Sequence record: PQ356295.1 | Length of the DNA stretch: 64,000 nucleotides | Source: Escherichia phage KKE7M | Reading direction: 5' to 3' (one strand) | In this document: piece by piece, positions 22,021 through 34,280 of the stretch | Layout: every line of letters starts with the position of its first letter | How positions within the stretch are numbered: position 1 is the first letter of the stretch | Translations under genes and position numbers: made by a program | Notes under the pieces: generated by a model | Database searches by the model: none | Seen by the model: the letters and a program-made list of their open reading frames with translations, nothing else | What the model was told of the DNA's origin: nothing

Positions 22021-22386
22021 CTATTCAATGCAAGCATTATTTGCATCTTCGATTCTGTCTTTCACCCACTGCAATCTCTTTGGGTTGGTATGGCAAGAAT
22101 GTGTCTTACCTTCATCTTCATAACACAGAAGATCATAATTAAAGGGTAGGAAGGAGGATAGCCCAGCACACGTGAATTGCAGTTTCATCTCTTCCAGTGT
22201 TTTACTACGAACCATCTTGAAATATTCTATATCTTCTTCCGTAGGTTTTTTCTTTGACATAGTGGTTGCCAGGTAATCCATAAGGCAATTACACAAACCA
22301 ACATTCTCACGATGCATTGAGGAATGATCTTCCATCCATGCTTTGTAAAATTCTAACAGCAGAGGACTGCTAAGAGGAACACACAT
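22021..22386 (-). CDS. hypothetical protein (about 121 aa), paralog family A
   Basis: Start trimmed to ATG with AAAGGAGTC RBS; LLLEFY ... GLCNCL ... LPFN ... LQWVKDRI motifs. Confidence 0.55.
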   Translation of the reverse strand: MCVPLSSPLLLEFYKAWMEDHSSMHRENVGLCNCLMDYLATTMSKKKPTEEDIEYFKMVRSKTLEEMKLQFTCAGLSSFLPFNYDLLCYEDEGKTHSCHTNPKRLQWVKDRIEDANNACIE

Positions 22387-22747
22387 ATCAGACTCCTTTA
22401 TAAATTTACGTTTCATGCTACACATCATACAGCGTCTTTTCATCTATTACAAGAACAGCAACCTAGAAACATCATTAATAGAGGAATTAGTATAGGATTT
22501 CCCTATCAATTATTCTATATATACCTAATATTTTTAACACACCCCTTTGTACATAATATAGACAAATAAATATCTATGCCACAAAAATTTTCCGGTATAC
22601 CCGATTTATTTCGACACACCCCCTTTTCATAAGCGTAAAGCCAATAATATCAATAACTTGCCGCAAAATACTGCTCGCTTGCGAGAGGTGCTTAACGCGA
22701 TTTTTAGCGCCCCCGATTTCTGCCGACCGTCCCCCTCAAATATCAAT

Positions 22748-22776
22748 GAGAATTATTATCATTTGCATTATCATTC
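22748..22776. promoter_or_regulatory. Fur-box-like AT-rich palindrome
   Basis: GAGAATTATTATCATTTGCATTATCATTC resembles GATAATGATAATCATTATC. Confidence 0.3.
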
Positions 22777-22942
22777 AATGACTTATAAGACTTTTGATTA
22801 TTTTCTGAGCAAGAAAGGCACTACTCACAACAAAACAGATAAATTATAAGTAAATCAATGACTTGGCAAGTCTAAACATCTATATACACCTTGCCAAATG
22901 AAATGATCCTGCGTGAAATAGTGCTACCCGTGGAAGATAGCT

Positions 22943-22963
22943 GATAATGATTATCATTTGCAT
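22943..22963. promoter_or_regulatory. Fur-box-like AT-rich palindrome
   Basis: GATAATGATTATCATTTGCAT. Confidence 0.3.
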
Positions 22964-23272
22964 ATTTTCTATACTATAAAACTACCTAAAAATCAAGATA
23001 ATTCTGATTTATTGCGCTTTTAAGAGAATAGGCTCAACAAATAGGCTATAACTATGCTCAACAAATGATAGGTTATATGGGGCAATAGTATGAAAAACCA
23101 TCTATTCAGATATAAATAATTTTGCGCAATAATGGTGATATTTTTCTTGACAAGAAAGATTTCTTTGTGTTCACATAGCGTCCCCTGGAAGGTGGCGCAT
23201 TATGATCATCAATGTCATTGTTCACGATGTTTATTATTGAATAGCTTATTATATGTAGCTTATATTATAGCC

Positions 23273-23456
23273 AATGTTCCAAACATTAGCTAATAATAAC
23301 GCACCGCAACAATGTAAGGGATACAATATACCATGTATATTGTTGCGCTTGCAATTGTTGCAAGCTACATAAGCACAAATAATAACTATCGGTGATGGTT
23401 ATTATGTGGGGTGTGTAGTTGCGTTATTATTAGCCGCCTATGTGTCCGGCATAGGC
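23273..23456. other. nested inverted-repeat (multi-hairpin) structure in gene-free region
   Basis: 15-bp perfect inverted repeat GCTAATAATAACGCA / TGCGTTATTATTAGC encloses three internal hairpins; a fourth GCCTATG / CATAGGC hairpin follows. Confidence 0.5.
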
Positions 23457-23499
23457 TGCTAATGATACGCTTGCTAATTATATTTCTTGTTATAATTAT

Positions 23500-23826
23500 T
23501 GTATGAAATGATTACGGTATGAAATGATTATTTAGGTAATAGATAGTAAGGTAAAGATTAGATCATAAATAGATAGGATATTAATTATTTAGTAATGTTA
23601 CTAACAATTTAATAGTTACTTTGTGCAACAATTCGATAGATTATAGTTATAGTTTTAAAGGTTAGATAGATTATATTTAGCTTGGTAATGATTTATATTA
23701 GTTATTGTTGTTTAATATAAGGTTATCAATGAGATAGTAACAGTAAGTTATAAATAAAGGTGAAATAATTAGCTTTAATTTAGTTAGATAACTTATTATT
23801 TTATAGGTTAGATGGTCATAAGTTAA
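23500..23826. repeat. AT-rich iteron-like short repeats
   Basis: Dense reiteration of TAGATAG / GGTTAGAT / GATTATA words in about 330 bp without ORFs. Confidence 0.35.
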
Positions 23827-23899
23827 GAATGATTATCATTATTGCATTATGCAGTTTATTGCATAAATAATCAGCTATAAATGAGAATGATTATTATTT
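23827..23899. promoter_or_regulatory. pair of Fur-box-like palindromes
   Basis: GAATGATTATCATTATTGCATTATGC and GAGAATGATTATTATTT. Confidence 0.3.
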
Positions 23900-24104
23900 A
23901 AGAGGAAAGACAAGAAAAAGGCTGTTTTTGCCAGATAGTTACATGGAGAAATTAAAAATAAGCGGTCTAAAACACGTTGTAAGCGCCTTATGATCTTCAT
24001 GGTATGGTTGTTCATCTGCTCCTTGATTAGCTCGATACCGCGATCTATTCACTTTTTTCGGTGAACGTTTTTGATAGGTAAAAGCTATCATCTTTATTTA
24101 GGTA

Positions 24105-24130
24105 AAAAGAAAGGGCGCTTTGTGCGCCCT
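24105..24130 (-). terminator. rho-independent terminator (minus strand)
   Basis: GGGCGC-ACAAA-GCGCCC hairpin followed by TTTCTTTTT on minus strand after gene stop. Confidence 0.6.
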
Positions 24131-24145
24131 GGTGTGAAATGTTAT

Positions 24146-24529
24146 TTACTGATAAGCTGGATCGTTTGTTATATCAATCCAATGAGCTAAATTAATTTTA
24201 TTTTTTGCTTTCATTTTCTCGATCAAACGTTCGGCTAATGTCTCGGAACGAATATAAACATGCTCGCTAAAATCTTGCCCCGTTTCCTCGTCGATCATCT
24301 CGCGATATTCAATTTTCCCGATAAACGCATGATTCAGCGCATAAGTTTTACCCGTGTACCAGTTGTGCAAATGAATCTCACATTTATAATCATCGCTATA
24401 ACCTTCGGTTGTTCTAACTTCAACCAGATCGCCTTTAAACACTGATAAGCACCACATAGGATCACGATCTACAGCGCCGTTAAAGTCTTTACCGTTTACA
24501 GTAGCCGCCAGGTTGATGATATTGCTCAT
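24146..24529 (-). CDS. hypothetical protein (about 127 aa)
   Basis: Start trimmed to ATG with CGAGGAAT RBS downstream of a sigma70-like promoter. Confidence 0.6.
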   Translation of the reverse strand: MSNIINLAATVNGKDFNGAVDRDPMWCLSVFKGDLVEVRTTEGYSDDYKCEIHLHNWYTGKTYALNHAFIGKIEYREMIDEETGQDFSEHVYIRSETLAERLIEKMKAKNKINLAHWIDITNDPAYQ

Positions 24530-24575: not shown

Positions 24576-24604
24576 ATAATAATGTAAGCGCGATCCGGTG
24601 TCAA
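24576..24604 (-). promoter_or_regulatory. sigma70-like promoter (TTGACA-17-TATTAT), minus strand
   Basis: Consensus -35 and good -10 about 45 nt upstream of start codon. Confidence 0.5.
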
Positions 24605-24616
24605 TAAGAAAGTTAA

Positions 24617-24853
24617 TTATTTTGCATAATCAATAACAGCGCAGATTTTATCATTTACATCTTGTAAATCAAAAGCATAGGCGATCTTACCTTGCAATTT
24701 CCCACGGGTGAAACAGATACGATAAACGCCGTTTTTACTATCCTCTTCTGATTTTAGTATTTTTGCAACCGTTGCAATTAACAGATCATCAGAGTAAGCG
24801 ATAAAGCCACCACGTAAAATAGGTGATTTTTTGAGGATCATGACTTCTTTCAT
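24617..24853 (-). CDS. hypothetical protein (78 aa)
   Basis: AGGAAAAAG RBS upstream. Confidence 0.55.
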   Translation of the reverse strand: MKEVMILKKSPILRGGFIAYSDDLLIATVAKILKSEEDSKNGVYRICFTRGKLQGKIAYAFDLQDVNDKICAVIDYAK

Positions 24854-24901
24854 TTTCTTTTTCCTGTTTTCGTTTTGGGTATGTTCTACCCTCTAAAAAC
24901 A

Positions 24902-24930
24902 ATATTAAACTGCTATGATTTATCGGTCAA
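24902..24930 (-). promoter_or_regulatory. sigma70-like promoter (TTGACC-17-TAATAT), minus strand
   Basis: -35/-10 pair about 50 nt upstream of 24853 start. Confidence 0.45.
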
Positions 24931-25275
24931 TAGATGAGATTGTAAAGATTTGATAGTTTATTCCTTTGATGTTTTGTTGTTTGATAGTTATTAGCTATCA
25001 ATATATAGCGGGATCTTCCGGTGATTATCTTCCCCTGTCCCCAGGTGCCGCCCGTTCCATAATAATAATCAAAAGCAGGGTAAAAGGCAAGATAAAAAGC
25101 AAATTATTTCCTATGTGCTTTAAACGCTCTAAACAGCTTTATAACAGCTTTTTCATCCTGGTAAGGGGATTAATCATCCCTACCTTGTTTAAGCGGTTAC
25201 AGTCGGTTTTAGATGGTTTTACGCCACCTTTACGCCTATTCTTTACGTGTTGTTTCCATCGTGAAAAAAGAATAC

Positions 25276-25308
25276 AAAAAAGGGCGCTTAGTGCGCCCCT
25301 TTCTTTTA
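25276..25308. terminator. bidirectional rho-independent terminator
   Basis: GGGCGC-TTAGT-GCGCCC hairpin flanked by A-run and T-run. Confidence 0.6.
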
Positions 25309-25315
25309 CCGTGTA

Positions 25316-25705
25316 TTAATATTCGTTATAATACATCGCTAATTTTTCATCAAAAGCCGATTGACGATCAGCATACTCCCAAAACATTTCCTGATCCTGT
25401 TGGTCATCTTCATCCATCATGTTAAACTGTGCTACTTCCTGGTAAGTGATCGCCATATTATAACGATAGGTGATCTCTTCTGCGATGTTTTCCGGTAAAG
25501 ATGATTCTACACTGTCTAACAGCATATTTAACATCATTTCAGCCGCTTTTTCATCATTATCAAAGCAGTAAGCAGACCATGCCGCATGATGCTTATTCTT
25601 CATCTTTGCAATCAAGCCATTGACTAAAAAAGGCGCTACGTTGTTAACGATACCCTGTAAAGATTGGAATTTTTCAACGTTAGAAACAGAAACCAGGTTG
25701 CGCAT
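25316..25705 (-). CDS. hypothetical protein (about 129 aa)
   Basis: Start trimmed to ATG downstream of promoter-hairpin cassette; AAAAAGG RBS. Confidence 0.6.
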   Translation of the reverse strand: MRNLVSVSNVEKFQSLQGIVNNVAPFLVNGLIAKMKNKHHAAWSAYCFDNDEKAAEMMLNMLLDSVESSLPENIAEEITYRYNMAITYQEVAQFNMMDEDDQQDQEMFWEYADRQSAFDEKLAMYYNEY

Positions 25706-25728
25706 AGTATTTACCTTTTTGATTACCT

Positions 25729-25787
25729 GGCGGGAAACCATTTCCCGCCTACGTGGTAAATAATACCATACTGGGGATCGGTGTCAA
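25729..25787 (-). promoter_or_regulatory. promoter + leader-hairpin cassette 1 (TTGACA-17-ATTATT then GGCGGGAAA-TGG-TTTCCCGCC)
   Basis: On minus strand: consensus -35, -10, then perfect 9-bp GC-rich hairpin, then RBS and ATG. Confidence 0.6.
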
Positions 25788-25793
25788 TACTTT

Positions 25794-26180
25794 TTATTCA
25801 ATATAAATCAAATTATCTTCACCAATGTAAGCATGCACCGATGGCATTAATTTAGCGGCATTTGTTAGGCGGTTCGCCGTGTTAGTGGTGTATATTTCAG
25901 GGCGATCCCAAAAGCCTACGCCGTGACCGTTACGGGTAAAATGTAAATCATTCCCGATCTGGTTTGCTGTAGCGCCGTCGCTCATTGCCTCAGAGATAGC
26001 TGCAACATTGGCATTACAAAAGGCGGTCACATCGCTGGTAATACGTTTCAGGGCGCTAGAAGAAAAATCATAATCGTCTAGATTCTCAATATATTCCCCA
26101 TTGTGATCCGTCGCTGGTTCGGCAAAAATAAAGGCTTCTTTATAGCCGTTGATCATTTCGTTAATGATTTCTGTTTTCAT
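25794..26180 (-). CDS. hypothetical protein (128 aa)
   Basis: ATGA overlap with upstream gene. Confidence 0.6.
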   Translation of the reverse strand: MKTEIINEMINGYKEAFIFAEPATDHNGEYIENLDDYDFSSSALKRITSDVTAFCNANVAAISEAMSDGATANQIGNDLHFTRNGHGVGFWDRPEIYTTNTANRLTNAAKLMPSVHAYIGEDNLIYIE

Positions 26181-26392
26181 GCTGTACGCTCAACAATAAT
26201 AATGGTTTGCGGGATCTCGTTTTCTACTACTATCAAGGCTTTTTTCTGCGTGATAGATATCTTTACCCGCTTCAGCGTGGCGGTAAAGTCTTTCATTTCG
26301 TCACGTGGTGTTTTAGTGCAATACCAGATCTCAGGTTTACCTATTTGCAAGCCGCGTAAAAATTCCGTTTTACCTGTCTTATTCGTGATCAT
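26177..26392 (-). CDS. hypothetical protein (about 71 aa)
   Basis: ATG with AAGGTGA RBS. Confidence 0.5.
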   Translation of the reverse strand: MITNKTGKTEFLRGLQIGKPEIWYCTKTPRDEMKDFTATLKRVKISITQKKALIVVENEIPQTIIIVERTA

Positions 26393-26402
26393 TTGTTTCA
26401 CC

Positions 26403-26507
26403 TTATCCAATACCGTGGGAAGATAGGATCATGTTAGCCATAGTTGCAATCACTCCAACCGATAACGCCAGGCCCACTATTACAACCGTGAAAATTTTCT
26501 CTAACAT
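26403..26507 (-). CDS. tiny hydrophobic peptide, about 34 aa
   Basis: GAGGGTAGC RBS directly downstream of cassette 2; one TM helix; not in ORF track. Confidence 0.35.
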   Translation of the reverse strand: MLEKIFTVVIVGLALSVGVIATMANMILSSHGIG

Positions 26508-26525
26508 GATGCTACCCTCATTAGT

Positions 26526-26587
26526 GGGCGTTGCCTTATTGCCCCGCCCTATGTGATACATATTATCAGCTTATTAGCCGTTGTCAA
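26526..26587 (-). promoter_or_regulatory. promoter + leader-hairpin cassette 2 (TTGACA-16-TAATAT, variant hairpin)
   Basis: Same architecture as cassette 1; hairpin variant GGGCGGGGCAA...GCAACGCCC. Confidence 0.55.
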
Positions 26588-26692
26588 TTACTTTTTTAAA
26601 CTTCTTTCAAAGAGAAGATCATCGATCTCAGAAACAATAAGCGTTATCAAAGGAATAATAACCGCCGCGCACATCATGGTAAGAATAATCAT
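26588..26692 (-). CDS. tiny hydrophobic peptide, about 34 aa
   Basis: ATG downstream of cassette 3; AGAGAGAA ribosome site; not in ORF track. Confidence 0.35.
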   Translation of the reverse strand: MIILTMMCAAVIIPLITLIVSEIDDLLFERSLKK

Positions 26693-26709
26693 TTTAGTTC
26701 TCTCTATTC

Positions 26710-26769
26710 TGGCGGGAAACCATTTCCCGCCCTACGTGGTACACTTTACCAGATAACCGCATATTGTCA
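26710..26769 (-). promoter_or_regulatory. promoter + leader-hairpin cassette 3 (TTGACA-16-TAAAGT + GGCGGGAAA-TGG-TTTCCCGCC)
   Basis: Identical hairpin to cassette 1. Confidence 0.6.
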
Positions 26770-26771
26770 AA

Positions 26772-26966
26772 CTATTTTTTACAAGGGATCAGTAAACTTC
26801 TCGCTACTGCTTCACGAAAACCTTTACTTTTTATTAGATCTATTGTTGCAGGGTGACAAGTAAAAGCCTTTGACCATTTTTGATCACCTGGTTTACGGGC
26901 GAAAATGTATACTTCCCCGTCAATTTCATCCCAACGAGTATTGCTTGTTAGTTTTTTAAGCGCCAT
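26772..26966 (-). CDS. hypothetical protein (about 64 aa)
   Basis: Start trimmed to ATG preceded by AAAGAGAAATC leader downstream of cassette 4. Confidence 0.5.
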   Translation of the reverse strand: MALKKLTSNTRWDEIDGEVYIFARKPGDQKWSKAFTCHPATIDLIKSKGFREAVARSLLIPCKK

Positions 26967-26987
26967 GATGATTTCTCTTTTAGTTGT

Positions 26988-27045
26988 GAGCGGCACTATT
27001 GCCGCCCTACGCAATACATTCTACCCTATTTATAATTGTTGTCAA
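26988..27045 (-). promoter_or_regulatory. promoter + leader-hairpin cassette 4 (TTGACA-16-TAGAAT + GCGGCA-ATAG-TGCCGC)
   Basis: Hairpin variant retains pairing via compensatory changes. Confidence 0.55.
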
Positions 27046-27046
27046 A

Positions 27047-27316
27047 CTATTTTTTCAAGCTCGCCCAGTCAAAACACGGCGGGATCTCGTTAAAACTTGT
27101 GCCCTGTAAAGCACATAATTTTTTAGCAATAGCCGCCGTGACCTGGCGCTGTACGCGCGGATCTGCTACTGATTGGAGAAAGTAGGCGGCTTTATATGTG
27201 ATCATGCTTTCGCCTGTTTCCTTGTTAACATGATGCACTATTTTAGCCTTATCATCTTTTACCAGGGTGTAACCGGATTCGATGGCCTTGATTGCAACGT
27301 CCAATGATATTTTCAT
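27047..27316 (-). CDS. hypothetical protein (89 aa)
   Basis: AAAGAGATAAATC leader then ATG, directly after hairpin. Confidence 0.6.
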   Translation of the reverse strand: MKISLDVAIKAIESGYTLVKDDKAKIVHHVNKETGESMITYKAAYFLQSVADPRVQRQVTAAIAKKLCALQGTSFNEIPPCFDWASLKK

Positions 27317-27335
27317 GATTTATCTCTTTATTGAT

Positions 27336-27355
27336 GGCGGGGAATACTCCCCGCC
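27336..27355 (-). promoter_or_regulatory. intergenic leader hairpin without own promoter (GGCGGGG-AGTATT-CCCCGCC)
   Basis: GC-rich hairpin between two same-operon genes; no U-tract. Confidence 0.4.
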
Positions 27356-27362
27356 TTATTAA

Positions 27363-27533
27363 TTACTCTTCATCGTCGCCGTTGTAGTATTCAATGCCGT
27401 TTTCATCGGTTACGGTAATATTAACGCCACCGATAGCAACACGATCACGGGCAAACGTCATGGCTTCATTTAAATCTTCAGACCAAAAAATATTGTGACC
27501 TTTGCGCGATACGTAAAACATAGTCGGGATCAT
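27363..27533 (-). CDS. small protein, about 56 aa
   Basis: AGAAGAGAAACAAATC leader then ATG downstream of cassette 6; not in ORF track. Confidence 0.5.
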   Translation of the reverse strand: MIPTMFYVSRKGHNIFWSEDLNEAMTFARDRVAIGGVNITVTDENGIEYYNGDDEE

Positions 27534-27557
27534 GATTTGTTTCTCTTCTGCTGTGAG

Positions 27558-27616
27558 CGGGAAACCATTTCCCGCCCTATGTGATAAACTTTACTACGTT
27601 GTTTGCCTACTGTCAA
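27558..27616 (-). promoter_or_regulatory. promoter + leader-hairpin cassette 6 (TTGACA-17-TAAAGT + GCGGGAAA-TGG-TTTCCCGC)
   Basis: Same architecture. Confidence 0.6.
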
Positions 27617-27617
27617 A

Positions 27618-27902
27618 TTATTTTTTAATGTTTTGCCCTACAAAATTGATCACATCTTTAAGCTGTTTCTCAGTCATGATCGTGCCTGGTAGTTCCTCTT
27701 TGATTTCTTGCGGTAAATAGATATTACCGCGCCAGGTTAATAAACAACCGTTTTGATCTTCGCAGATAGAATAAGAGAAGATCCACTCATTATCATTCTC
27801 AAGCTCCCAAAAGCACAAAAAATCTTCTTTCCCTAAGTTTTCAACGGTTAAGCATAAGCCGCGACGTGCTGCATAGTTGGAAAGTGCTTTTGTGATCTTC
27901 AT
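27618..27902 (-). CDS. hypothetical protein (94 aa)
   Basis: AGAAGAGATAAGAT leader then ATG downstream of cassette 7. Confidence 0.6.
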   Translation of the reverse strand: MKITKALSNYAARRGLCLTVENLGKEDFLCFWELENDNEWIFSYSICEDQNGCLLTWRGNIYLPQEIKEELPGTIMTEKQLKDVINFVGQNIKK

Positions 27903-27921
27903 ATCTTATCTCTTCTGTTAA

Positions 27922-27985
27922 GGCGGGAAAACCATTTCCCCGCTCTATGAGATACAATATACCCCTTATCAGGTGTGCTGTCAAT
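27922..27985 (-). promoter_or_regulatory. promoter + leader-hairpin cassette 7 (TTGACA-17-TATATT + GCGGGGAAA-TGG-TTTTCCCGCC)
   Basis: Same architecture, 1-nt hairpin variant. Confidence 0.6.
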
Positions 27986-28308
27986 CAATAATCTTTAATA
28001 TTTTCCACATTTACAAAAGTGTGTTTATTTTCTAAGTTTTCGCCGTACCATTGCCCAATGTTGATTTCTGCGGTGCGCAACCAGGACATGCCGCGTTCTA
28101 TCTTTTTGCTTGCAATGTCGATCCGGCTTTTACATAGTGCTTTCGCTTGCAATGTAAAAACACTATTGCCCTGTAATGCTTCCAGGTCATCATGTGCAAG
28201 GCGATACTCTTTAAAGCCTGATTCTATCATTTCAATAGCATCAAGTAAACGCGCGCGATGATAGAAAAAATCAGAGTTATCCAAATAAACACCGATCACA
28301 GATTTCAT
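27985..28308 (-). CDS. hypothetical protein (about 107 aa)
   Basis: Start trimmed to ATG with AAAAGGG RBS. Confidence 0.6.
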   Translation of the reverse strand: MKSVIGVYLDNSDFFYHRARLLDAIEMIESGFKEYRLAHDDLEALQGNSVFTLQAKALCKSRIDIASKKIERGMSWLRTAEINIGQWYGENLENKHTFVNVENIKDY

Positions 28309-28329
28309 AATTTTACCCTTTTGTTTGCG

Positions 28330-28379
28330 GCCTTTGCCGTTTTCAAGATATAGTTTAAAGCATAACAAAAAATTGTCAA
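28330..28379 (-). promoter_or_regulatory. sigma70-like promoter (TTGACA ... TAAACT), minus strand
   Basis: Consensus -35 with plausible -10 upstream of 28308 start; no GGCGGG hairpin. Confidence 0.4.
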
Positions 28380-28408
28380 GCCTTTAAAGCGTACAACTAT
28401 AAAACCTA

Positions 28409-28528
28409 TTAAAACACAATGTATAACAACATGGCTATAGTAGCAATACAACATAAAGCCATGCTTGTTTTCCTTCCTTCCTCGTATGCTGGATTTATTA
28501 CGCTATATTGTACGGGAATAATTTTCAT
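28409..28528 (-). CDS. tiny hydrophobic peptide, about 39 aa
   Basis: AAGGAAACAGC RBS; not in ORF track. Confidence 0.3.
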   Translation of the reverse strand: MKIIPVQYSVINPAYEEGRKTSMALCCIATIAMLLYIVF

Positions 28529-28537
28529 GCTGTTTCC

Positions 28538-28633
28538 TTAATGTCTTAAAACGTGGTTTACAATAGAAACAAGTATACAGAAGAAAAAAGATCCTGACAA
28601 TAAGATCCCGAAAAATAAATGTAAATAGGGCAT
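28538..28633 (-). CDS. tiny hydrophobic peptide, 31 aa
   Basis: AAGGAGTAAAACC RBS 2 nt after upstream stop; codon-by-codon check gives MPYLHLFFGILLSGSFFFCILVSIVNHVLRH. Confidence 0.35.
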   Translation of the reverse strand: MPYLHLFFGILLSGSFFFCILVSIVNHVLRH

Positions 28634-28637
28634 GGTT

Positions 28638-28940
28638 TTACTCCTTAAAAAAATCATTGACAATTAAACTGATAACGCCCAGCACCAGATCACCAGGTAG
28701 CGCCGCGCTTTCGTTGTTGCTTGTTTGCACTTCCTCACTAGTACCAGCATGATAGATTGCATGGTAAGCAATAGTATAATAACCTTTCGTTATTTCTTTA
28801 AGATTAATGATTAGCACGTTATTTGTTTCATCTTGAAACAATTTAGCGGTGATAGTATTGTTTTCTTTTACACTATCGACTTTTATTGATGGATCATTTA
28901 CACCAGAAAAAAGAAAAAACGTTTTAGCTATGCCGTTCAT
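28638..28940 (-). CDS. hypothetical protein (100 aa)
   Basis: AAAGGAGAAC RBS. Confidence 0.6.
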   Translation of the reverse strand: MNGIAKTFFLFSGVNDPSIKVDSVKENNTITAKLFQDETNNVLIINLKEITKGYYTIAYHAIYHAGTSEEVQTSNNESAALPGDLVLGVISLIVNDFFKE

Positions 28941-28962
28941 GTAGTTCTCCTTTGTTGTGTGT

Positions 28963-28991
28963 ATCTTATAACGTGCTTTCTATGTTGTCAA
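28963..28991 (-). promoter_or_regulatory. sigma70-like promoter (TTGACA-17-TAAGAT), minus strand
   Basis: -35 overlaps stop codon of upstream gene. Confidence 0.45.
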
Positions 28992-29389
28992 TCTTTTATT
29001 TCGGTGCATTTTGCTAGGGTATACGTTGCAAGTGCTGACACTAGTTTTTCATTGTTACGATCTGCGGCTGTACTGTGTACTTTTTGGATACTTTTTAACC
29101 ACGGTGTAAAATTTTGAGTAGTGAGCACACTGGTAATAATTTCACATGGCACGTTTTCATTTAAGCCATTAACAATAGATTTATCTATTTTTGCCGTTAA
29201 TTGTGTAACAGCACCATAAGCGATCATGTGTGAATCCTCCATGATTTCATCGGGGATCGCATTATTAATGATCATGACGTTTTCCATTGCATCAACGGCG
29301 CTTAATTCTGCTACTGTGGAGGATATCGCCGCGTGAGATGTTCCAACCATGCCAAAAGAGATTAAACCAGCGATCAATAATTTTTTCAT
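28988..29389 (-). CDS. putative secreted/periplasmic protein with signal peptide (about 133 aa)
   Basis: MKKLLIAGLISFGMVGTSHA signal-peptide-like N-terminus; GAGGCAAGAA RBS. Confidence 0.6.
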   Translation of the reverse strand: MKKLLIAGLISFGMVGTSHAAISSTVAELSAVDAMENVMIINNAIPDEIMEDSHMIAYGAVTQLTAKIDKSIVNGLNENVPCEIITSVLTTQNFTPWLKSIQKVHSTAADRNNEKLVSALATYTLAKCTEIKD

Positions 29390-29397
29390 TTCTTGCC

Positions 29398-29580
29398 TCA
29401 TATATGTTTTATTGAGATTATATTGTCACTATATACAACGTTTTTCAACGTGTCAATAAAAATTTTATTGTCTTCAATCCCCAGGATCACGCCGCTAGTT
29501 ATAAAGCCATATTGATCACGATATCTGGCGCATAACCTTTGCCCCTGGGCTAGTGCCTTGCTTATTTCGTCTAATTTCAT
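29398..29580 (-). CDS. hypothetical protein (about 60 aa)
   Basis: Internal ATG preceded by CAGGAGC RBS. Confidence 0.5.
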   Translation of the reverse strand: MKLDEISKALAQGQRLCARYRDQYGFITSGVILGIEDNKIFIDTLKNVVYSDNIISIKHI

Positions 29581-29667
29581 TTTTAAAGCTCCTGTAAAGC
29601 CGTCTAACGTTGATTTATAGGCTTGCCCTGGCGTTACCATTGCCTATGGGTAACAAGCCTCTATATA

Positions 29668-29700
29668 AGCTAAAAGGGCGCTTATTGCGCCCTTTTTGTT
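29668..29700. terminator. bidirectional rho-independent terminator
   Basis: AGGGCGC-TTATT-GCGCCCT hairpin flanked by A-run and T-run. Confidence 0.55.
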
Positions 29701-29836
29701 ATTCGTTCCAGTGTCTTTTTGTGCTGCGATCTCTTTTTGTTTTGTTCCGCTTATCGCCTTTCTTGGTAATCTCTTCGTTCCAATTTTTACGCGCCTTGCT
29801 GCGGTTGAATTTTTCGATCTGCTGTGATGCGTTCAT
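29699..29836 (-). CDS. small highly basic protein, about 45 aa
   Basis: AAGAGGAAAAAAC RBS; K/R-rich; not in ORF track. Confidence 0.4.
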   Translation of the reverse strand: MNASQQIEKFNRSKARKNWNEEITKKGDKRNKTKRDRSTKRHWNE

Positions 29837-29851
29837 GTTTTTTCCTCTTAA

Positions 29852-30211
29852 TTACGCAACGTTATGCTGTTTTGCCAGGGTTACAATCATGCTTGCAATA
29901 TATAACCAATAATTTTCCCTCTCACGGGTAACGGTTGTTTCTTTGCTTGTTTCTTTTATGTACTTCCATTCAATTAACAAGTGATCGATCTCGTTATAAT
30001 CAAAAGCAATATTGACTTCTGACGGTAAACCTTGTAACCATGAGGCTATTGCCTTGATCACGTTATAATTGTAACGTTTTTGATTATCGGGATACCAGTA
30101 TTCAGAGTTAAAACGGCGCATCAGTTCGGTGATCTTTTCTTTTTCGGTTGTAGTACCATCAAAAGAAATAGCCGACACAATGTAAGTTTTAATTGCTTTT
30201 ACTGATTTCAT
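29852..30211 (-). CDS. hypothetical protein (119 aa)
   Basis: AAAGAGATAAGATT leader then ATG downstream of cassette 8. Confidence 0.6.
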   Translation of the reverse strand: MKSVKAIKTYIVSAISFDGTTTEKEKITELMRRFNSEYWYPDNQKRYNYNVIKAIASWLQGLPSEVNIAFDYNEIDHLLIEWKYIKETSKETTVTRERENYWLYIASMIVTLAKQHNVA

Positions 30212-30231
30212 AATCTTATCTCTTTATTGAT

Positions 30232-30290
30232 GGCGGGAAACCATTTCCCGCCGTTGTTGTTACTTTACTTATAAATGATGCTACTGTCAA
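30232..30290 (-). promoter_or_regulatory. promoter + leader-hairpin cassette 8 (TTGACA-17-TAAAGT + GGCGGGAAA-TGG-TTTCCCGCC)
   Basis: Identical hairpin. Confidence 0.6.
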
Positions 30291-30297
30291 GCGAATA

Positions 30298-30468
30298 TTA
30301 TTTATTTTTTAACGTTAATGTTCCCAGCTTATCAGCGTGACGCAGACCAGGAAAGATCCATTTTCCTGATTCATCTTTCACCGGGGCTTTAAGCGTAGCG
30401 CCCAGGTTGGCGGCGTTAACTTTACGTGCAACGTTGCGAGCGGCTTCACGGGTGGCGAAAGTGATCAT
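30298..30468 (-). CDS. small protein, about 56 aa
   Basis: AGAAGAGGAAACATC leader then ATG downstream of cassette 9; not in ORF track. Confidence 0.45.
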   Translation of the reverse strand: MITFATREAARNVARKVNAANLGATLKAPVKDESGKWIFPGLRHADKLGTLTLKNK

Positions 30469-30491
30469 GATGTTTCCTCTTCTCTTTGTTA

Positions 30492-30554
30492 GGCGGTGGG
30501 CTATTCCACCGCCTTAATGAATATAATTTACTTTATTGATGGCCCTGGAGTCAA
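30492..30554 (-). promoter_or_regulatory. promoter + leader-hairpin cassette 9 (TTGACT-18-TAAATT + GGCGGTGG-AATAGC-CCACCGCC)
   Basis: Variant hairpin with compensatory substitutions; -35 embedded in a second short palindrome. Confidence 0.5.
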
Positions 30555-30572
30555 GGCCATCTAAAAATAAAT

Positions 30573-30914
30573 TTACTCGTTTTCTTCCAGCTCTGAAAGA
30601 TCTTCTTTCACTTCTTCGAGCTCTGTCTGCAATTCTTGGTACTCTTCATCGTCCTCAATATCCAGGCTGCCGATGTAGTCGCTAAATCCGCAGCGGTAAG
30701 CGATAGGATCTAACTCCTTGAGGATACGCGACGGAAGAAAAGAAATGTCTCCGATCATAATTTCGCCGTAGATCTCGTCTAACCATTCATCATAGTTTTC
30801 GTCGTACTTGTCCTCGTCGATTTCAAAGTTATCGATCTTGTTCTCAAGGTCTGCGATCTGTTTTTTCAGCGCGGCGATCTGCATAGCTTTTTCTGCGGCG
30901 GTCATAGTAGTCAT
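30573..30914 (-). CDS. acidic coiled-coil protein (113 aa)
   Basis: AAAGGAGAAAAC RBS; Asp/Glu-rich with heptad-like pattern. Confidence 0.6.
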   Translation of the reverse strand: MTTMTAAEKAMQIAALKKQIADLENKIDNFEIDEDKYDENYDEWLDEIYGEIMIGDISFLPSRILKELDPIAYRCGFSDYIGSLDIEDDEEYQELQTELEEVKEDLSELEENE

Positions 30915-30939
30915 GGTGTTTTCTCCTTTTGTGTATTCT

Positions 30940-30994
30940 GGGAAGTTTTCCCGTTTACGTGTTTAAGTATATCGATTTTAGTTATCTTGTCAAT
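30940..30994 (-). promoter_or_regulatory. sigma70-like promoter (TTGACA-16-TATACT) with degenerate leader hairpin
   Basis: GGGAA-AAC-TTCCC mini-hairpin downstream of -10. Confidence 0.45.
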
Positions 30995-31001
30995 ATTATT
31001 T

Positions 31002-31229
31002 TTAGTTTAACTGATCCAGGCACAACAAGCGATCAACATTTAGATCGGTTAGGCTAATCGTTGGCACTTGGTAGGCTTCGATGTACTCAACGCTCGACCA
31101 TTGCCCAAAGTTAGCGACCGCCCAGCTATTCAAGGAGGAGTGAAGATCATCCCCTTTCTTCTCGGTGATAACTGCTACTACCTGGGATATTCCAACCGTG
31201 CCGGATACGCGAACAATAACGATAGCCAT
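31002..31229 (-). CDS. hypothetical protein (75 aa)
   Basis: AAAGAAAGG leader then ATG downstream of cassette 10. Confidence 0.55.
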   Translation of the reverse strand: MAIVIVRVSGTVGISQVVAVITEKKGDDLHSSLNSWAVANFGQWSSVEYIEAYQVPTISLTDLNVDRLLCLDQLN

Positions 31230-31251
31230 AATGTTAACCTTTCTTTGATTT

Positions 31252-31311
31252 GGCGGGAAACCATTTCCCGCCCTATGCGATAAACTATACCAGATTAAAA
31301 AACGTTGTCAA
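31252..31311 (-). promoter_or_regulatory. promoter + leader-hairpin cassette 10 (TTGACA-16-TATAGT + GGCGGGAAA-TGG-TTTCCCGCC)
   Basis: Identical hairpin. Confidence 0.6.
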
Positions 31312-31320
31312 CTGCTTTTA

Positions 31321-31560
31321 TTACATTCCTACCATAGCGGCGCGGATACTGGTTTTACTGAATTTATAGCCATCTGGCGTAGTATTTTGGCCCATTTCGT
31401 TAAGTAGTGACATCATTTCACGCGCGGCGTTATCTTTATTGTTGTTCACGGCTATAAATTCTTTTGCCATATTATAAAAACCTGGATCGTTATTAATCCA
31501 AAGGCTTACATTCCAATGAGTTTTATTTTTGTGACCGTTGTACATTTTAGATTTAGCCAT
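31321..31560 (-). CDS. hypothetical protein (79 aa)
   Basis: AAAAGAGATTAACATC leader then ATG downstream of cassette 11. Confidence 0.6.
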   Translation of the reverse strand: MAKSKMYNGHKNKTHWNVSLWINNDPGFYNMAKEFIAVNNNKDNAAREMMSLLNEMGQNTTPDGYKFSKTSIRAAMVGM

Positions 31561-31585
31561 GATGTTAATCTCTTTTTCAGTGAGG

Positions 31586-31642
31586 CGGGAACTATTCCCG
31601 CTCTCGATATAAGTATTATATGCTTTTTATTCGTGCTGTCAA
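31586..31642 (-). promoter_or_regulatory. promoter + leader-hairpin cassette 11 (TTGACA-16-TATAAT + GCGGGAA-TAGT-TCCCGC)
   Basis: Perfect consensus -35/-10; variant hairpin. Confidence 0.6.
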
Positions 31643-31648
31643 TGCTTT

Positions 31649-32014
31649 TTATAAATCTTTTTTGCGTTTAACATCGCTTGCATGACTGTATACAGCGATC
31701 CCATTGTCACGGCAAAAACGGGAAAGGTAAGCATAATTTGAAAAGTCTTTACCTTCCAGGTTGATAACCTTGCTAAACTCTTCCAGGGCAACGGTATCAA
31801 AATGATCACCATAACCATATTGAAACGGAACGTTAACGACTTCAATCAGTTTACCGCCGATCTCAACGTCAACCATCAAAGAGAAATAAGTATTACCATA
31901 CGACTTTTGAAACCAGCGACGGGCGCTAATATGTACCGCTTCAATGCTGGATAGCTCAATTTTAGCAGTGTTAGCCAGGGTAGCATAAGCAGAAACATTG
32001 ATATTTTTAGCCAT
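31649..32014 (-). CDS. hypothetical protein (121 aa)
   Basis: AAAAGAGATTAAAGAC leader then ATG. Confidence 0.6.
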   Translation of the reverse strand: MAKNINVSAYATLANTAKIELSSIEAVHISARRWFQKSYGNTYFSLMVDVEIGGKLIEVVNVPFQYGYGDHFDTVALEEFSKVINLEGKDFSNYAYLSRFCRDNGIAVYSHASDVKRKKDL

Positions 32015-32040
32015 AGTCTTTAATCTCTTTTGATTAGTTA

Positions 32041-32090
32041 GGAGTATTCCCGATAAAAGTTATTATGCTTGTGCTATCGTTCGTTGTCAA
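32041..32090 (-). promoter_or_regulatory. sigma70-like promoter (TTGACA-17-CATAAT)
   Basis: -35/-10 upstream of 32014 start; hairpin degenerate. Confidence 0.45.
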
Positions 32091-32109
32091 TAGCACAAGA
32101 CTAAAACTT

Positions 32110-32289
32110 TTAACGATAATCATCATAGGCTTTATTGACCTGGCGAATATAGCATTCAAAAGCTAGATCAATAGATTTATATTCACGGATATAATCACCA
32201 TAGGAAACCACATACATTTCTATAGCTTCCTCATATGCCAGGATGATAGAATCTAAACCTACGATCTCAGTCTTTGCAATAATAGCCAT
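32110..32289 (-). CDS. small protein, about 59 aa
   Basis: CTAAGGAATAAAAGC RBS; not in ORF track; coordinates approximate. Confidence 0.45.
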   Translation of the reverse strand: MAIIAKTEIVGLDSIILAYEEAIEMYVVSYGDYIREYKSIDLAFECYIRQVNKAYDDYR

Positions 32290-32348
32290 GCTTTTATTCC
32301 TTAGTAATGTTTCAATCTATATAAGCATTATAGCTTACTGATTTCAGG

Positions 32349-32432
32349 TGTCAAGTGATTTTTTATTTCACCTTATGGGGCGTTGCCCCGCTTTATGTGG
32401 TACATATTACGGGGCTTATTTGCATATGTCAA
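32349..32432 (-). promoter_or_regulatory. tandem promoters (TTGACA-17-TAATAT and TTGACA-16-TATAAT) flanking a GGGGC-AAC-GCCCC hairpin
   Basis: Two consensus promoters 70 bp apart on minus strand upstream of 32289 start. Confidence 0.5.
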
Positions 32433-32435
32433 GCC

Positions 32436-32990
32436 TTACACAATGCAATTTTCATAATTTTTTAGGGCTTGTCTTTTTTCCTCTTCTGTCGGCATGTATG
32501 GCTGGATCTCTTCCTCTTCCAGAGTAGGCATGATTTCTTCCTCTTCCTCCTGGTCGCCCTGGTCTTCCTCTTGCGCTATGGTAACAAGTTTATTGATCTT
32601 CTCCTGGGCTTTAATCAATTTTGCATCTAGCACCATTTTAGCGGTGTTGTATACAGTCCAGGCCATGCGCTTTTCTTCGTATGCCTTATCTAGTGCGGCT
32701 AATTTAGCGGGATACTCTTCCAACACCTTAAAAGCCGGATCAATGTTGTACAAGGGATTATTTTTAGCGTCATCGCTTGGATCTGCGGCGCTTGCAATGT
32801 CAGCGTTACCATTCGCCAGCCATCCAGGACGAACGGATCGCGTCCTGGTGTTGCCGTTGCTCTTTGCCGCTCGATTTCCTATCTGCTCCCCGCTATACCC
32901 TACCATGTGATCGATCATGTCATCTGGTATTATGCGCGGATCATTTGCGTCATGCTTTACCCAGGACTGGATCACATATTCACGCCCCAT
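32436..32990 (-). CDS. hypothetical protein with acidic C-terminal region (184 aa)
   Basis: AGAAGAGG RBS upstream. Confidence 0.6.
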   Translation of the reverse strand: MGREYVIQSWVKHDANDPRIIPDDMIDHMVGYSGEQIGNRAAKSNGNTRTRSVRPGWLANGNADIASAADPSDDAKNNPLYNIDPAFKVLEEYPAKLAALDKAYEEKRMAWTVYNTAKMVLDAKLIKAQEKINKLVTIAQEEDQGDQEEEEEIMPTLEEEEIQPYMPTEEEKRQALKNYENCIV

Positions 32991-32991
32991 G

Positions 32992-33252
32992 CTAGTTCGC
33001 CTCTTCTGTTAGTAGTTTACATACCTTAAACATGCTTGCAGCGTCTTTTGACGGTAGCCAGCCTATTCGATACACTCCAGGATCTGGATTAGTTACATCA
33101 GTCAGTTGCGCGTTGCGATGATTAAAAATAGTGTAACCGCCGCCAGCACGGGGATAAACATTATCTTTAAACCTGATAGCGTATCTCGCCAGGTCGAACG
33201 TTGTAGCATGTTCAAAAGCGATCACATTATCAAAAACTTTTAGAAAAAACAA
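32992..33252 (-). CDS. hypothetical protein (86 aa), TTG start
   Basis: GGGGAGGA RBS 5 nt before TTG. Confidence 0.5.
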   Translation of the reverse strand: MFFLKVFDNVIAFEHATTFDLARYAIRFKDNVYPRAGGGYTIFNHRNAQLTDVTNPDPGVYRIGWLPSKDAASMFKVCKLLTEEAN

Positions 33253-33254
33253 GA

Positions 33255-33401
33255 TTATCCTCCCCAGCGTTTAAAGCCCGTTGCACGGTTATTTTTTAGC
33301 TCTCGTTTTAGTCTCTTGCAACGGTTTACAAGTGCAAACCGTGCCGGAGTCGTAACAGTAGCGCCGTTTTTGGTATGAATACTCATTACATATTGTTTCA
33401 T
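33255..33401 (-). CDS. small basic protein, about 48 aa
   Basis: AGGATAAAACTTT then ATG downstream of cassette 13; not in ORF track. Confidence 0.4.
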   Translation of the reverse strand: MKQYVMSIHTKNGATVTTPARFALVNRCKRLKRELKNNRATGFKRWGG

Positions 33402-33420
33402 AAAGTTTTATCCTATATAA

Positions 33421-33473
33421 GCGGGAACAATTCCCGCTTTAAGATAGCTTATCAGGTTTTAGTGCAATGTCAA
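33421..33473 (-). promoter_or_regulatory. promoter + leader-hairpin cassette 13 (TTGACA-16-TAAGCT + GCGGGAA-TTGT-TCCCGC)
   Basis: Same architecture, variant loop. Confidence 0.55.
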
Positions 33474-33479
33474 CCGTTT

Positions 33480-33842
33480 TTATTCGTAAATTTTACCGCT
33501 TTCTACCCATACCATAACACGGCGCATGTTATCCCATGCATCTTGTTGCAGATTTAAGGCATGCAATTCTTCCGTGGTGCTCATACCTAGAACGGGCTTG
33601 CTATATGTTACAAAGAGATCGCCAGCATATTCATAAGCCAGGGTAAGATCACATTGAATCATCTTTTTAATCATAGCATCAAGCATCATATTAGCGGCAT
33701 GTTGATCACGTTTCAGCGGTAACGTTGCGATCTGTGTGCGATAGCTTTCGATCCGTGCATCCACTGCATCACGCGAAAGGTTTTTCACGTCATCGCGGAA
33801 AGATACCAGATTAAACATGATAGTATTGATTTGCTTGCTCAT
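33480..33842 (-). CDS. hypothetical protein (120 aa)
   Basis: AAAGAAAGGGTAACACA leader then ATG downstream of cassette 14. Confidence 0.6.
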   Translation of the reverse strand: MSKQINTIMFNLVSFRDDVKNLSRDAVDARIESYRTQIATLPLKRDQHAANMMLDAMIKKMIQCDLTLAYEYAGDLFVTYSKPVLGMSTTEELHALNLQQDAWDNMRRVMVWVESGKIYE

Positions 33843-33864
33843 TGTGTTACCCTTTCTTTGATTT

Positions 33865-33924
33865 GGCGGGAAACCATTTCCCGCCTTATGTGGTATATAT
33901 TACCAGATTATTTTTCAGTGTCAA
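33865..33924 (-). promoter_or_regulatory. promoter + leader-hairpin cassette 14 (TTGACA-16-TAATAT + GGCGGGAAA-TGG-TTTCCCGCC)
   Basis: Identical hairpin. Confidence 0.6.
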
Positions 33925-33927
33925 GCC

Positions 33928-34200: not shown

Positions 34201-34224
34201 GATTATTTCTCTCTTCTGTTATGA

Positions 34225-34280
34225 GCGGCACTATTGCCGCCCTATGTGATACATCTTATCAGATTAAAAAACGTTGTCAA
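34225..34280 (-). promoter_or_regulatory. promoter + leader-hairpin cassette 15 (TTGACA + GCGGCA-ATAG-TGCCGC)
   Basis: Same variant hairpin as cassette 4. Confidence 0.55.

Follow-up and report, generated by a model that had tools for sequence, protein, structure and literature searches.

Locus and fold of the element

The DNA analysed here is a stretch of 64,000 nucleotides from Escherichia phage KKE7M (record PQ356295.1; the whole stretch is called the window), whose source genome belongs to Justusliebigvirus (phi92-like; Stephanstirmvirinae). From 22444 to approximately 24111–24145, the window contains a gap of about 1.7 kb without genes, as the earlier note on this DNA had described, and the genes on both flanks of the gap lie on the minus strand. 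Within the gap, a non-coding element of approximately 170 nt (23289–23456) forms an undescribed, deeply conserved structure beside the physical end of the genome. The surrounding non-coding stretch (22400–24200) matches approximately 50 Justusliebigvirus genomes at 93–97% identity, including VivaForever, JohannJBalmer, and PaulScherrer. In GenBank, the gap is left blank or holds mini-open reading frames (mini-ORFs) that disagree from record to record (VivaForever and similar records). A coding origin of the element was rejected on this ground and because the sole plus-strand ORF touching it (23132–23293) is frameshifted by a 2-nt indel in phage inny. The element comprises the following parts.

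23289–23303, plus strand: 5′ arm of the outer stem P1, 15 bp, the perfect complement of 23420–23434
23306–23361, plus strand: PB, a long irregular hairpin in which GCAACAAT and GTAAG pair with CTTGC and ATTGTTGC, overlapping the first two hairpins of the earlier note
23323–23343, plus strand: inner hairpin of PB, specific to Justusliebigvirus
23363–23419, plus strand: P4, a long hairpin composed of P4a (CTACA/TGTAG), P4c, and P4b (TAATAACTATC-GGT-GATGGTTATTA)
23420–23434, plus strand: 3′ arm of P1, with an alternative partner, GCTAATGATA at 23458–23467, used in the minimum-energy fold of a longer plus-strand stretch
23436–23456, plus strand: P5, the 3′ hairpin GCCTATG(T)-GTCCG-(G)CATAGGC

The earlier note had drawn this region as a cloverleaf, and all the repeats on which that drawing relied are present. 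The outer inverted repeat is perfect over 15 bp, formed by GCTAATAATAACGCA (23289–23303) and TGCGTTATTATTAGC (23420–23434) with the arms 116 nt apart; its 5′ arm starts at 23289, where the note had placed it at about 23288. The three internal hairpins are P2, with CGCAACAAT (23305–23313) opposite ATTGTTGCG (23339–23347), P3, with GCTTGCAA-TTG-TTGCAAGC (23347–23365), and a third, CACAAATAATAAC...GTTATTATGTG (23374–23408). The further hairpin, GCCTATG-TGTCCGG-CATAGGC, occupies 23436–23456. Folded as RNA, 23270–23475 reaches −87 kcal/mol on the plus strand (z −7.5) and −67.7 kcal/mol on the minus strand (z −5.7). With DNA parameters, 23286–23468 gives −47.5 kcal/mol (z −9.8) and −42.7 kcal/mol (z −8.5) for the plus and minus strands, respectively. 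Since none of 200 dinucleotide shuffles matches the observed RNA fold energy and both strands have strongly negative z values, the repeats are not a product of chance.

The plus strand from 23289 to 23456 adopts a three-way junction of P1, PB, and P4, followed by the 3′ hairpin P5, and this pairing is kept by selection across the subfamily. A distant-mode search with 23200–23520 as the query finds one copy of the element per record in 132 phage records, all from Stephanstirmvirinae. In Phapecoctavirus and the Klebsiella and Citrobacter relatives, the element is the only alignable part (window 23343–23466 and beyond, at approximately 76–82% identity), and the rest of the gap does not align. Pattern scans add four IMG/VR contigs and nine metagenome contigs; seven of 16 metagenome pattern matches were discarded as chance. 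The pattern scan also returned four matches in bacterial genomes, none of which is recognised by the covariance model; they are likewise chance matches, so that bacterial genomes yielded no copy of the element by pattern scan followed by covariance model. In the 64-kb window, the covariance model gives a single match of 120 bits. Five records labelled as Campylobacter phages (MG065639, MG065645, MG065650, MG065656, and MG065689) also resemble the region. Four of them have 94.5% identity with the region in the present E. coli phage, and the match of the fifth (B15) is to the phAPEC8-type element; all five are probably mislabelled or contaminant genomes.

The comparative alignment contains 18 distinct variants of the element, and covariation was computed from the 13 non-Justusliebigvirus sequences under the three-way-junction model. 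In these 13, 96.9% of cells are paired and double changes occur at 18 of 60 pairs. None of 500 shuffles equals the observed values for percentage paired, for the number of pairs or of cells that carry double changes, or for covariation; the observed number of further pair types is reached by 8 of the 500. Controls slid along the sequence are only 25–50% paired, and RNAalifold reports 12 compensatory pairs. In the outer stem P1, all 270 cells of the 18 variants are Watson–Crick, with three covarying positions (A-T to C-G; C-G to G-C; G-C to C-G or A-T). P4b is fully paired and six of its nine pairs covary; the combined P4a/P4c helix is 93.6% paired with three covarying pairs, and the G.T wobbles of P4 occur on the plus strand only. 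P5 is 100% paired, again with three covarying pairs (GC to CG twice, T-A to C-G). The conservation of pairing in related phages, a check proposed in the earlier note, is thus borne out strongly, with compensatory changes subfamily-wide. As a separate observation, the P4b triloop (window 23391–23393) is reverse-complemented between lineages, GGT against ACC and GGC against GCC, which is a signature of hairpin inversion through template switching in DNA.

It is the three-hairpin arrangement of the note's cloverleaf that is not the best supported fold. In PB, the 5′ arm of P2 and the conserved TGTAAGCG pair with CGCTTGCA together with the 'loop' and 3′ arm of P3. In 18/18 variants, PB is the plus-strand minimum-energy fold; it is 93% paired and carries double changes at three pairs, one of them with four pair types (UA, AU, GU, and GC). 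P2 and P3, by comparison, show no double change among the aligned variants; the P3 stem GCTTGCAA/TTGCAAGC is invariant, and P2 has C.A and A.A mismatches in several lineages. Mutually exclusive pairings are possible in every lineage: PB excludes P2 and P3, and P1 excludes P5 extended by GCTAATGATA. For the P2 5′ arm and for the P1 3′ arm alike, the two alternative partners are conserved. The segment common to both folds, CGCTTGCAA...TTGCAAGCTAC, is nearly invariant except for 3–4 loop bases, which is the pattern that a two-state switch would produce. Alternatively, this shared invariance could reflect two DNA strands that prefer different folds, because the minus strand folds into the cloverleaf under DNA parameters.

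Position beside the genome end and the counterpart in Vequintavirinae

The most informative context for the element is its distance from the direct terminal repeat (DTR) of the packaged genome. The features that define this side of the locus and its gene borders are as follows.

starts at 22443, minus strand: first gene to the left of the gap
22693–23034, no strand: DTR of the packaged genome, 342 bp, with physical ends at 22693 and 23034
23029–23066, plus strand: motif (A/T)(G/T)GCTCAACAAAT, two copies 24 nt apart, the first spanning the DTR cut AGGCT^CAACAAAT
24146–24529, minus strand: homologue of phi92 gp248 on the right flank of the gap, followed by a terminator at 24130–24112

The phi92 record annotates a 343-bp repeat, DTR-L at 1–343 and DTR-R at 148270–148612, which maps to window 23034–22693 on the minus strand, and the VEcB record has both ends at the same cut. 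For BME3, PhageTerm gave a DTR of 342 bp (PMC12210895), and, according to a 2025 paper, direct terminal repeats form the ends of Stephanstirmvirinae genomes (PMC12695924). Because the phi92 annotation maps to 22693–23034, the element begins 254 bp inside unique DNA from the DTR, with the two cuts 254 and 596 bp away. Read inward, the strand that folds has its 5′ end at this nearby terminus. In Schickermooser (Phapecoctavirus), a 329-bp repeat, 328 bp according to its paper, is present at both record ends, with the element 208 bp away. The DNA between the DTR and the element is not alignable between genera. The repeat boundaries, in turn, are kept in both genera, with an AGC start and a CGCGTTA end followed by AGCAC (window 23029–23066 and 22685–22700). 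The repeated GCTCAACAAAT at the inner cut is a candidate terminase cut motif. Vequintavirinae, too, have a related motif, ATGCTCAA/TTGAGCAT, close to the repeat.

Two records looked as if a genome end fell within the element or at the outer stem of its Vequintavirinae counterpart, and both placements were rejected. The BME3 record (PP239276.1) has an exact 788-bp duplication at its ends with the junction inside P5, followed by sequence containing Ns, and its 'DTR-L' is displaced by 73 nt relative to the actual repeat of 342 bp. The phi92 and VEcB records both give 22693/23034, and the BME3 duplication is probably an assembly or editing artefact. A terminus at the outer stem, suggested by the end of the SalP219 record, coincides with a 127-bp end overlap typical of an assembler artefact.

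The Vequintavirinae relatives, located through the gp248 homologue (4MG and others), do not carry the Stephanstirmvirinae-type element by pattern or covariance model, and the covariance model scores at most 21 bits there (Mydo), with poor alignment. At the same locus, 4MG, GAP31, PVP-SE1, Mydo, and KPP-1 instead contain a perfect 20–21-bp inverted repeat around three hairpins. This cloverleaf reaches −116 kcal/mol (z −11) on the equivalent of the window plus strand and −107 kcal/mol on the other strand, a small overall asymmetry. It is kept in 63 Vequintavirinae records, with 10 compensatory pairs and a same-strand U.G in six of six aligned sequences. In KPP-1, PhageTerm and doubled coverage define a 514-bp repeat, and packaging is classed as T7-type (PMC9862379). 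The KPP-1 cloverleaf lies approximately 310 bp from this repeat. Thus the element is found 254 bp (phi92, BME3, and VEcB), 208 bp (Schickermooser), or approximately 310 bp (KPP-1) from the DTR, always on the same side and the same strand, the fixed position and polarity next to the cut sites that a terminase or DTR-processing signal would have. The two subfamilies share one order, namely terminal repeat, 0.2–0.3 kb, branched element, and minus-strand early genes, and the genes beyond the repeat have opposite orientations in Stephanstirmvirinae and Vequintavirinae.

The two structures are alike in their place beside the gp248 homologue, polarity, DTR distance, long perfect outer stem, compensatory changes, and switch in skew. 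They differ in that their sequences are not alignable, in that the Vequintavirinae form is a four-way and not a three-way junction, and in its much weaker strand asymmetry. Because the pairing covaries subfamily-wide and an analogous structure occupies the same Vequintavirinae locus, the element is functional and not a chance palindrome.

Two further peculiarities were seen in the Vequintavirinae cloverleaf. A module of approximately 55 nt with three mini-hairpins (CCCGTTnnACGGG, a 7–8-bp hairpin, and TCGCTnTGCGA) is inserted in differing loops, at locus coordinates of about 1120–1175 in LNA4 and 1650–1705 in Mydo and near the record end in SalP219, and looks like a small mobile hairpin cassette. 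PVP-SE1 (locus 1407–1500) contains a second, partial 5′ arm of the outer stem, GCGACACTATAACAC, approximately 90 nt upstream of the full element, with a small GC hairpin between.

Folded strand, transcription signals, and composition

The folded molecule is of plus sense, opposite to the flanking genes, and is either RNA or single-stranded DNA; this follows from wobbles confined to the plus strand and from the greater stability of the plus-strand fold. The plus strand beats the minus strand by 11–24 kcal/mol in all 18 variants and by at least 16 kcal/mol in 17 of them. G.U pairs occur at 11 pair positions, on the plus strand only. One U.G in PB is present in 16/16 variants in which the position is paired, and another closes P5. 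The three-way-junction fold contains no A.C cells among the aligned variants.

The Rfam search suggested in the earlier note returned nothing on the element. No model of Rfam 15 (including phi29 pRNA, 6S, RNase P, ribozymes, and riboswitches) overlaps 23270–23470 at E ≤10, nor does any overlap the element in five other lineages at the same threshold; if the element acts as RNA, it would therefore form a new family. A tRNA-like cloverleaf was rejected, as the outer stem has 15 bp and the arms 16–25 bp, ARAGORN finds no tRNA or tmRNA in the whole window, and there is no Rfam tRNA-clan match at E ≤10.

Transcription signals and compositional features around the element are listed below.

22748–22766, no strand: Fur-box-like palindrome inside the DTR, 15/19, in a block conserved in Phapecoctavirus
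22943–22961, no strand: Fur-box-like palindrome GATAATGATTATCATTTGC inside the DTR, the best match, 17/19 on the minus strand
23150–23185, plus strand: promoter-like box TTGACA-N17-TTCACA that reads towards the element, preceded by an A/T-rich tract and with CACATAGCG and a small hairpin after it
23198–23216 and 23883–23901: further Fur-box-like sites
23470–23900, plus strand: AT-rich, C-depleted tract, 430 bp, GC 20–26%, GC skew +0.36 to +0.82
23825–23843, no strand: Fur-box-like palindrome downstream of the element, 16/19
24112–24130, minus strand: intrinsic terminator that ends the early-gene transcription unit arriving from the right, annotated as a terminator in phages Paula and phAPEC8

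The terminator on the minus strand (24130–24112) is the sole terminator-like site found in a scan of 22300–24300, and no plus-strand terminator occurs within 340 nt after P5 in 11 lineages. P5 is not followed by a T-run and is therefore not an intrinsic terminator, so that any transcript would continue into the AT-rich tract. The promoter-like box at 23150–23185 has a perfect −35 and a poor −10 and lies 139–142 nt upstream of the element in Justusliebigvirus. Vequintavirinae have similar TTGACA boxes upstream of the element at approximately −140 and at −256 to −333, and in PVP-SE1, where the 5′ arm is duplicated, they are at −233 and −425. These boxes may represent early promoters in decay or promoters dependent on a phage factor. 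The boxes directed at the element, A-rich upstream, also have in common the loose pattern TTGACAAG(purine-rich)TTGTGTT in Justusliebigvirus and Vequintavirinae.

To the right of the gap, approximately 20 strong sigma-70-type early promoters on the minus strand (24604–34280; e.g., 27616, 26770, 33924, and 31311) drive small genes towards it. Their layout consists of an A/T-rich upstream tract, TTGACA, 17 nt, and the −10 TAnnnT. Six of the early transcripts start with the conserved CACATAGG, followed by a 9-bp hairpin GGCGGGAAA-TGG-TTTCCCGCC; this 5′ hairpin, GGCGGGAAATGGTTTCCCGCC, probably acts as a stabiliser or processing signal. The T4-type late promoter TATAAATA has two copies in the gap, and the motif is not enriched in the window.

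Composition changes at the element. The first two 200-nt blocks of the downstream tract have a GC content of 20–22% with G33/C11 and G33/C10, and to the left of the terminal repeat the skew has the opposite sign. The skew flips at the element in 15/15 lineages of both subfamilies, from negative values upstream to between +0.15 and +0.58 across most of the next 400 nt, in flanks that are not alignable. Because the skew changes sign at the element, the plus strand rightward and the minus strand leftward appear to be habitually exposed or RNA-like strands, which suggests divergent transcription or bidirectional replication. A C-rich repeat, CCCGATTT...GACACACCCCCT, also occurs three times (22523–22547, 22600–22624, and 22712–22736) on the side of opposite skew, in the interval from the first gene to the terminal repeat.

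The region was described beforehand as flanked by Fur-box-like palindromes and AT-rich iterons. A scan with the 19-bp consensus GATAATGATAATCATTATC, allowing up to five mismatches, finds 11 matches in the gap against 1.0 expected, the best at 17/19, in agreement with the former claim. As to the iterons, the AT-richness stands (GC 20–26% at 23470–23900), but the tandem repeats are weak, with 16 nt repeated 2.4 times at 23495–23532. Each of the seven scanned Stephanstirmvirinae loci has Fur-box-like sites on the flanks of the element, and three of four Vequintavirinae loci have them upstream. Of the six Stephanstirmvirinae loci other than this one, five have downstream equivalents (+376 to +556); Citrobacter phage Tr1 is the exception. 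An alternative reading of the sites is as the enriched hexamer AATGAT in inverted pairs. The genome-end region may be bound at these palindromes by host Fur or by a phage protein. IHF sites are confined to the left part of the gap.

Candidate roles and known counterparts

The element is best explained as a cis-acting, terminus-proximal structured element of rV5/phi92-like myoviruses, which probably helps copy or package the chromosome. The earlier note had offered an origin, a packaging or recombination site, or a structured non-coding RNA. That the element is functional is borne out by covariation; sequence tools do not single out one of the three. A role as an end-proximal replication-initiation element is ranked first, tentatively, because it would account for the strand specificity of the fold, the mutually exclusive pairings, the AT-rich tract after the element, the change in skew, and the missing terminator. 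The plus strand would be exposed by transcription directed inward or by a fork moving inward, and would then fold as a leader or primer RNA or as a displaced non-template DNA strand. In the adjoining downstream tract, which has more G than C and melts easily, the fold could organise or stabilise a priming complex or an RNA–DNA hybrid; the T7-type helicase-primase and DNA polymerase of the phage would take over at that point. The exclusive pairings (PB against P2 and P3; P1 against extended P5) might serve as an on/off switch, as in ColE1 RNA II. The rV5-like phages encode a T7-type gp4d helicase-primase and a family A polymerase (PMC3606486). A transcription-primed origin would have an easily unwound AT-rich tract, or one prone to G-rich RNA–DNA hybrids, on its downstream side, and 23470–23900 agrees with this in GC content and skew. 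The flanking palindromes of a protein-binding type, the single copy of the element, and the Vequintavirinae cloverleaf of like polarity with TTGACA boxes directed into it also speak for this role.

Several observations weigh against replication initiation. The fixed DTR distance and polarity are more naturally explained by packaging or end processing. P1, P3, and P5 are 100% Watson–Crick with several CG to GC flips, and such flips can be produced by template switching in DNA palindromes without RNA-level selection. Only weak matches to a sigma-70 promoter (8–9 of 12), at shifting positions, occur upstream on the plus strand, and no upstream plus-strand promoter conserved in position has the quality of the phage early promoters; the TTGACA boxes are without a credible −10 and are missing in Phapecoctavirus. 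The gap contains no DnaA boxes and no clear iteron array, with weak tandem repeats of 2–3 copies only, and an origin of the DnaA or iteron type was rejected accordingly. Large-scale GC skew tracks gene orientation and is uninformative on the origin; the rV5 paper shows the region as a 'non-coding' box only, and its skew analysis gave no origin (PMC3606486). Finally, the literature searched yielded no transcriptome, origin, or pac study of these phages, nor a paper describing the element.

The main rival is a packaging or terminal-repeat processing signal, a possible though doubtful role, in which the element would be a recognition or timing site for a T7-type terminase cutting both boundaries of the 342-bp repeat, or a fold-back sequence that regenerates the second repeat. 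The order of DTR, 0.2–0.3 kb, and element recurs with the same polarity in three genera of two subfamilies with experimentally determined ends, across intervening DNA that does not align between genera. There is one copy of the element per genome, and PhageTerm classes KPP-1 as T7-type. In the phi92 orientation, the element stands on the right-end side just before the repeat, which is the geometry of the T7 hairpin-forming repeat, and the fully Watson–Crick P1 and P5 with their pair-flipping evolution fit a DNA palindrome. However, known terminase sites are duplex DNA that needs no intramolecular pairing, whereas covariation in irregular bulged helices and the one-strand wobbles point to a single-stranded fold. 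Likewise, 254 and 596 bp from the cuts exceed the distances of lambda cosB/cosQ or of the T7 repeat, and no copy is found on bacterial genomes, where packaging-hijacking satellites might carry one. The same strand-specific fold with conserved G.U pairs would suit a free, trans-acting non-coding RNA of approximately 115–170 nt, cut from a longer plus-strand transcript at P1 (for example by RNase III, like rRNA processing stalks) and directed at a host or phage target as a regulator, protein sponge, or anti-defence decoy. Conserved junction and loop sequences (e.g., TGTAAG, GTGTAGTTG, and the P5 loop GT(G/T)TCC), a long closing stem followed by a stable 3′ hairpin as is typical of processed stable RNAs, and the absence of any matching Rfam family agree with such an RNA. 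It is nevertheless unlikely, as no credible promoter or terminator delimits a gene, the DTR-linked position and compositional switch would be left unexplained, and the perfect 13–21-bp stems of Vequintavirinae are unusual for a trans-acting bacterial small RNA.

Still less probable is a new class of terminus-linked structured nucleic acid, RNA or a folded DNA strand, that would act with the terminase or replisome at the concatemer junction with a two-state switch built in, functionally comparable to phi29 pRNA or to the transcription-coupled junction signal of T7. In Vequintavirinae, the converging plus-strand genes beyond the repeat could transcribe the element only after the ends join, which would report 'concatemer formed' to the packaging machinery. 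The place of the element just downstream of the early-unit terminator (24112–24130), and in Vequintavirinae between converging gene blocks, could also indicate a transcription barrier or insulator at the concatemer junction. Its hairpin cluster would stop or process early-operon read-through before the terminal repeat and, in Vequintavirinae, would do the same to read-through from the converging plus-strand genes on the left. This is very unlikely, because no helix is followed by a U-run on either strand, a barrier needs neither conserved junction sequence nor two alternative folds, and the better-folding plus strand is not the one transcribed from the early operon in Stephanstirmvirinae. The least probable explanation is selfish or neutral palindromic DNA without a phage role, whose arms are maintained by template-switch conversion. 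Hairpin modules do move here, as in the insertion of approximately 55 nt in different loops of LNA4, Mydo, and SalP219, and the P4b loop is inverted between lineages (GGT/ACC and GGC/GCC). Against this stand a single copy at one locus in all 132 and 63 records of two subfamilies, within non-coding DNA that has diverged past alignment, the invariant unpaired junction bases, and the irregular helices with one-strand wobbles.

Phages resembling phi92, phAPEC8, rV5, and PVP-SE1 are among the commonest broad-host-range isolates on E. coli, Klebsiella, and Salmonella and are used in therapy cocktails. Their terminal non-coding region of 1.5–2 kb is blank or filled with spurious small ORFs in GenBank. 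The element is the sole sequence of this region kept by selection, and its fold, strand, and relation to the physical ends are now defined. Mutagenesis and plasmid assays of origin or packaging function thereby gain a precise target, as does genome engineering, for instance in the choice of where to open a rebooted or synthetic genome. An RNA form would represent a new, strongly covarying family suited to Rfam. A DNA form would mean that selection has kept a single-strand fold in a phage with double-stranded DNA, which would be a rare case.

Among known systems, phi29 pRNA (Rfam RF00044) is a 120–174-nt RNA with a three-way junction and a long 5′/3′ closing helix, encoded a few hundred bp from the genome end. 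The element resembles it in size class, junction, closing helix, and distance from the end. It differs in the lack of an Rfam match, and phages of the window type use a DTR and terminase, not protein-primed phi29-type packaging. Moreover, a complementary, covarying loop pair that could form a phi29-type ring was not found by inspection of the alignments, which is not a formal test; the P4b loops are GGT, GGC, ACC, ATC, GCC, or AGG, those of P5 are GTCCG or TTCCC, and those of PB vary.

In T7, Chung, Nardone, and Hinkle reportedly described in 1990 an inverted repeat just left of the right terminal repeat, at which a hairpin end forms during concatemer processing. This hairpin-forming repeat is a simple palindrome approximately 30 bp from the terminal repeat. 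The T7 concatemer-junction repeat and cosQ/cosB are like the element in being located in unique DNA on one side of the repeat, with fixed polarity and in single copy. Unlike the element of the window, the T7 repeat is a simple palindrome, and cos/pac sites are duplex protein-binding sites without covarying hairpins.

As functional analogues of a replication-initiation element, the T7 secondary origins, the T4 R-loop origins, and ColE1 RNA II come closest. The secondary origins of T7, at the promoters phiOL and phiOR, adjoin its 160-bp terminal repeat, with phiOL approximately 245 bp from it. Here, the likeness includes a short DTR, T7-type packaging and replisome, and an inward-read non-coding site a few hundred bp inside the repeat with AT-rich DNA after it. 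However, T7 has its own RNA polymerase, a 23-bp promoter, and no large branched structure, whereas the present phage lacks a phage RNA polymerase and a clear promoter and has a covarying three-way junction of 170 nt. In the ColE1 primer RNA II and the T4 R-loop origins oriF/oriG, exclusive pairings in a structured leader RNA determine whether a lasting RNA–DNA hybrid forms in the downstream unwinding tract, and a G-over-C skew of the RNA-like strand favours such hybrids. Compared with these origins, the window locus has no sequence or Rfam similarity, no defined promoter, and no RNA I-like antisense partner that was seen, and an R-loop at the window is putative; it shares with them two alternative pairings, an AT-rich tract, and the G-over-C skew.

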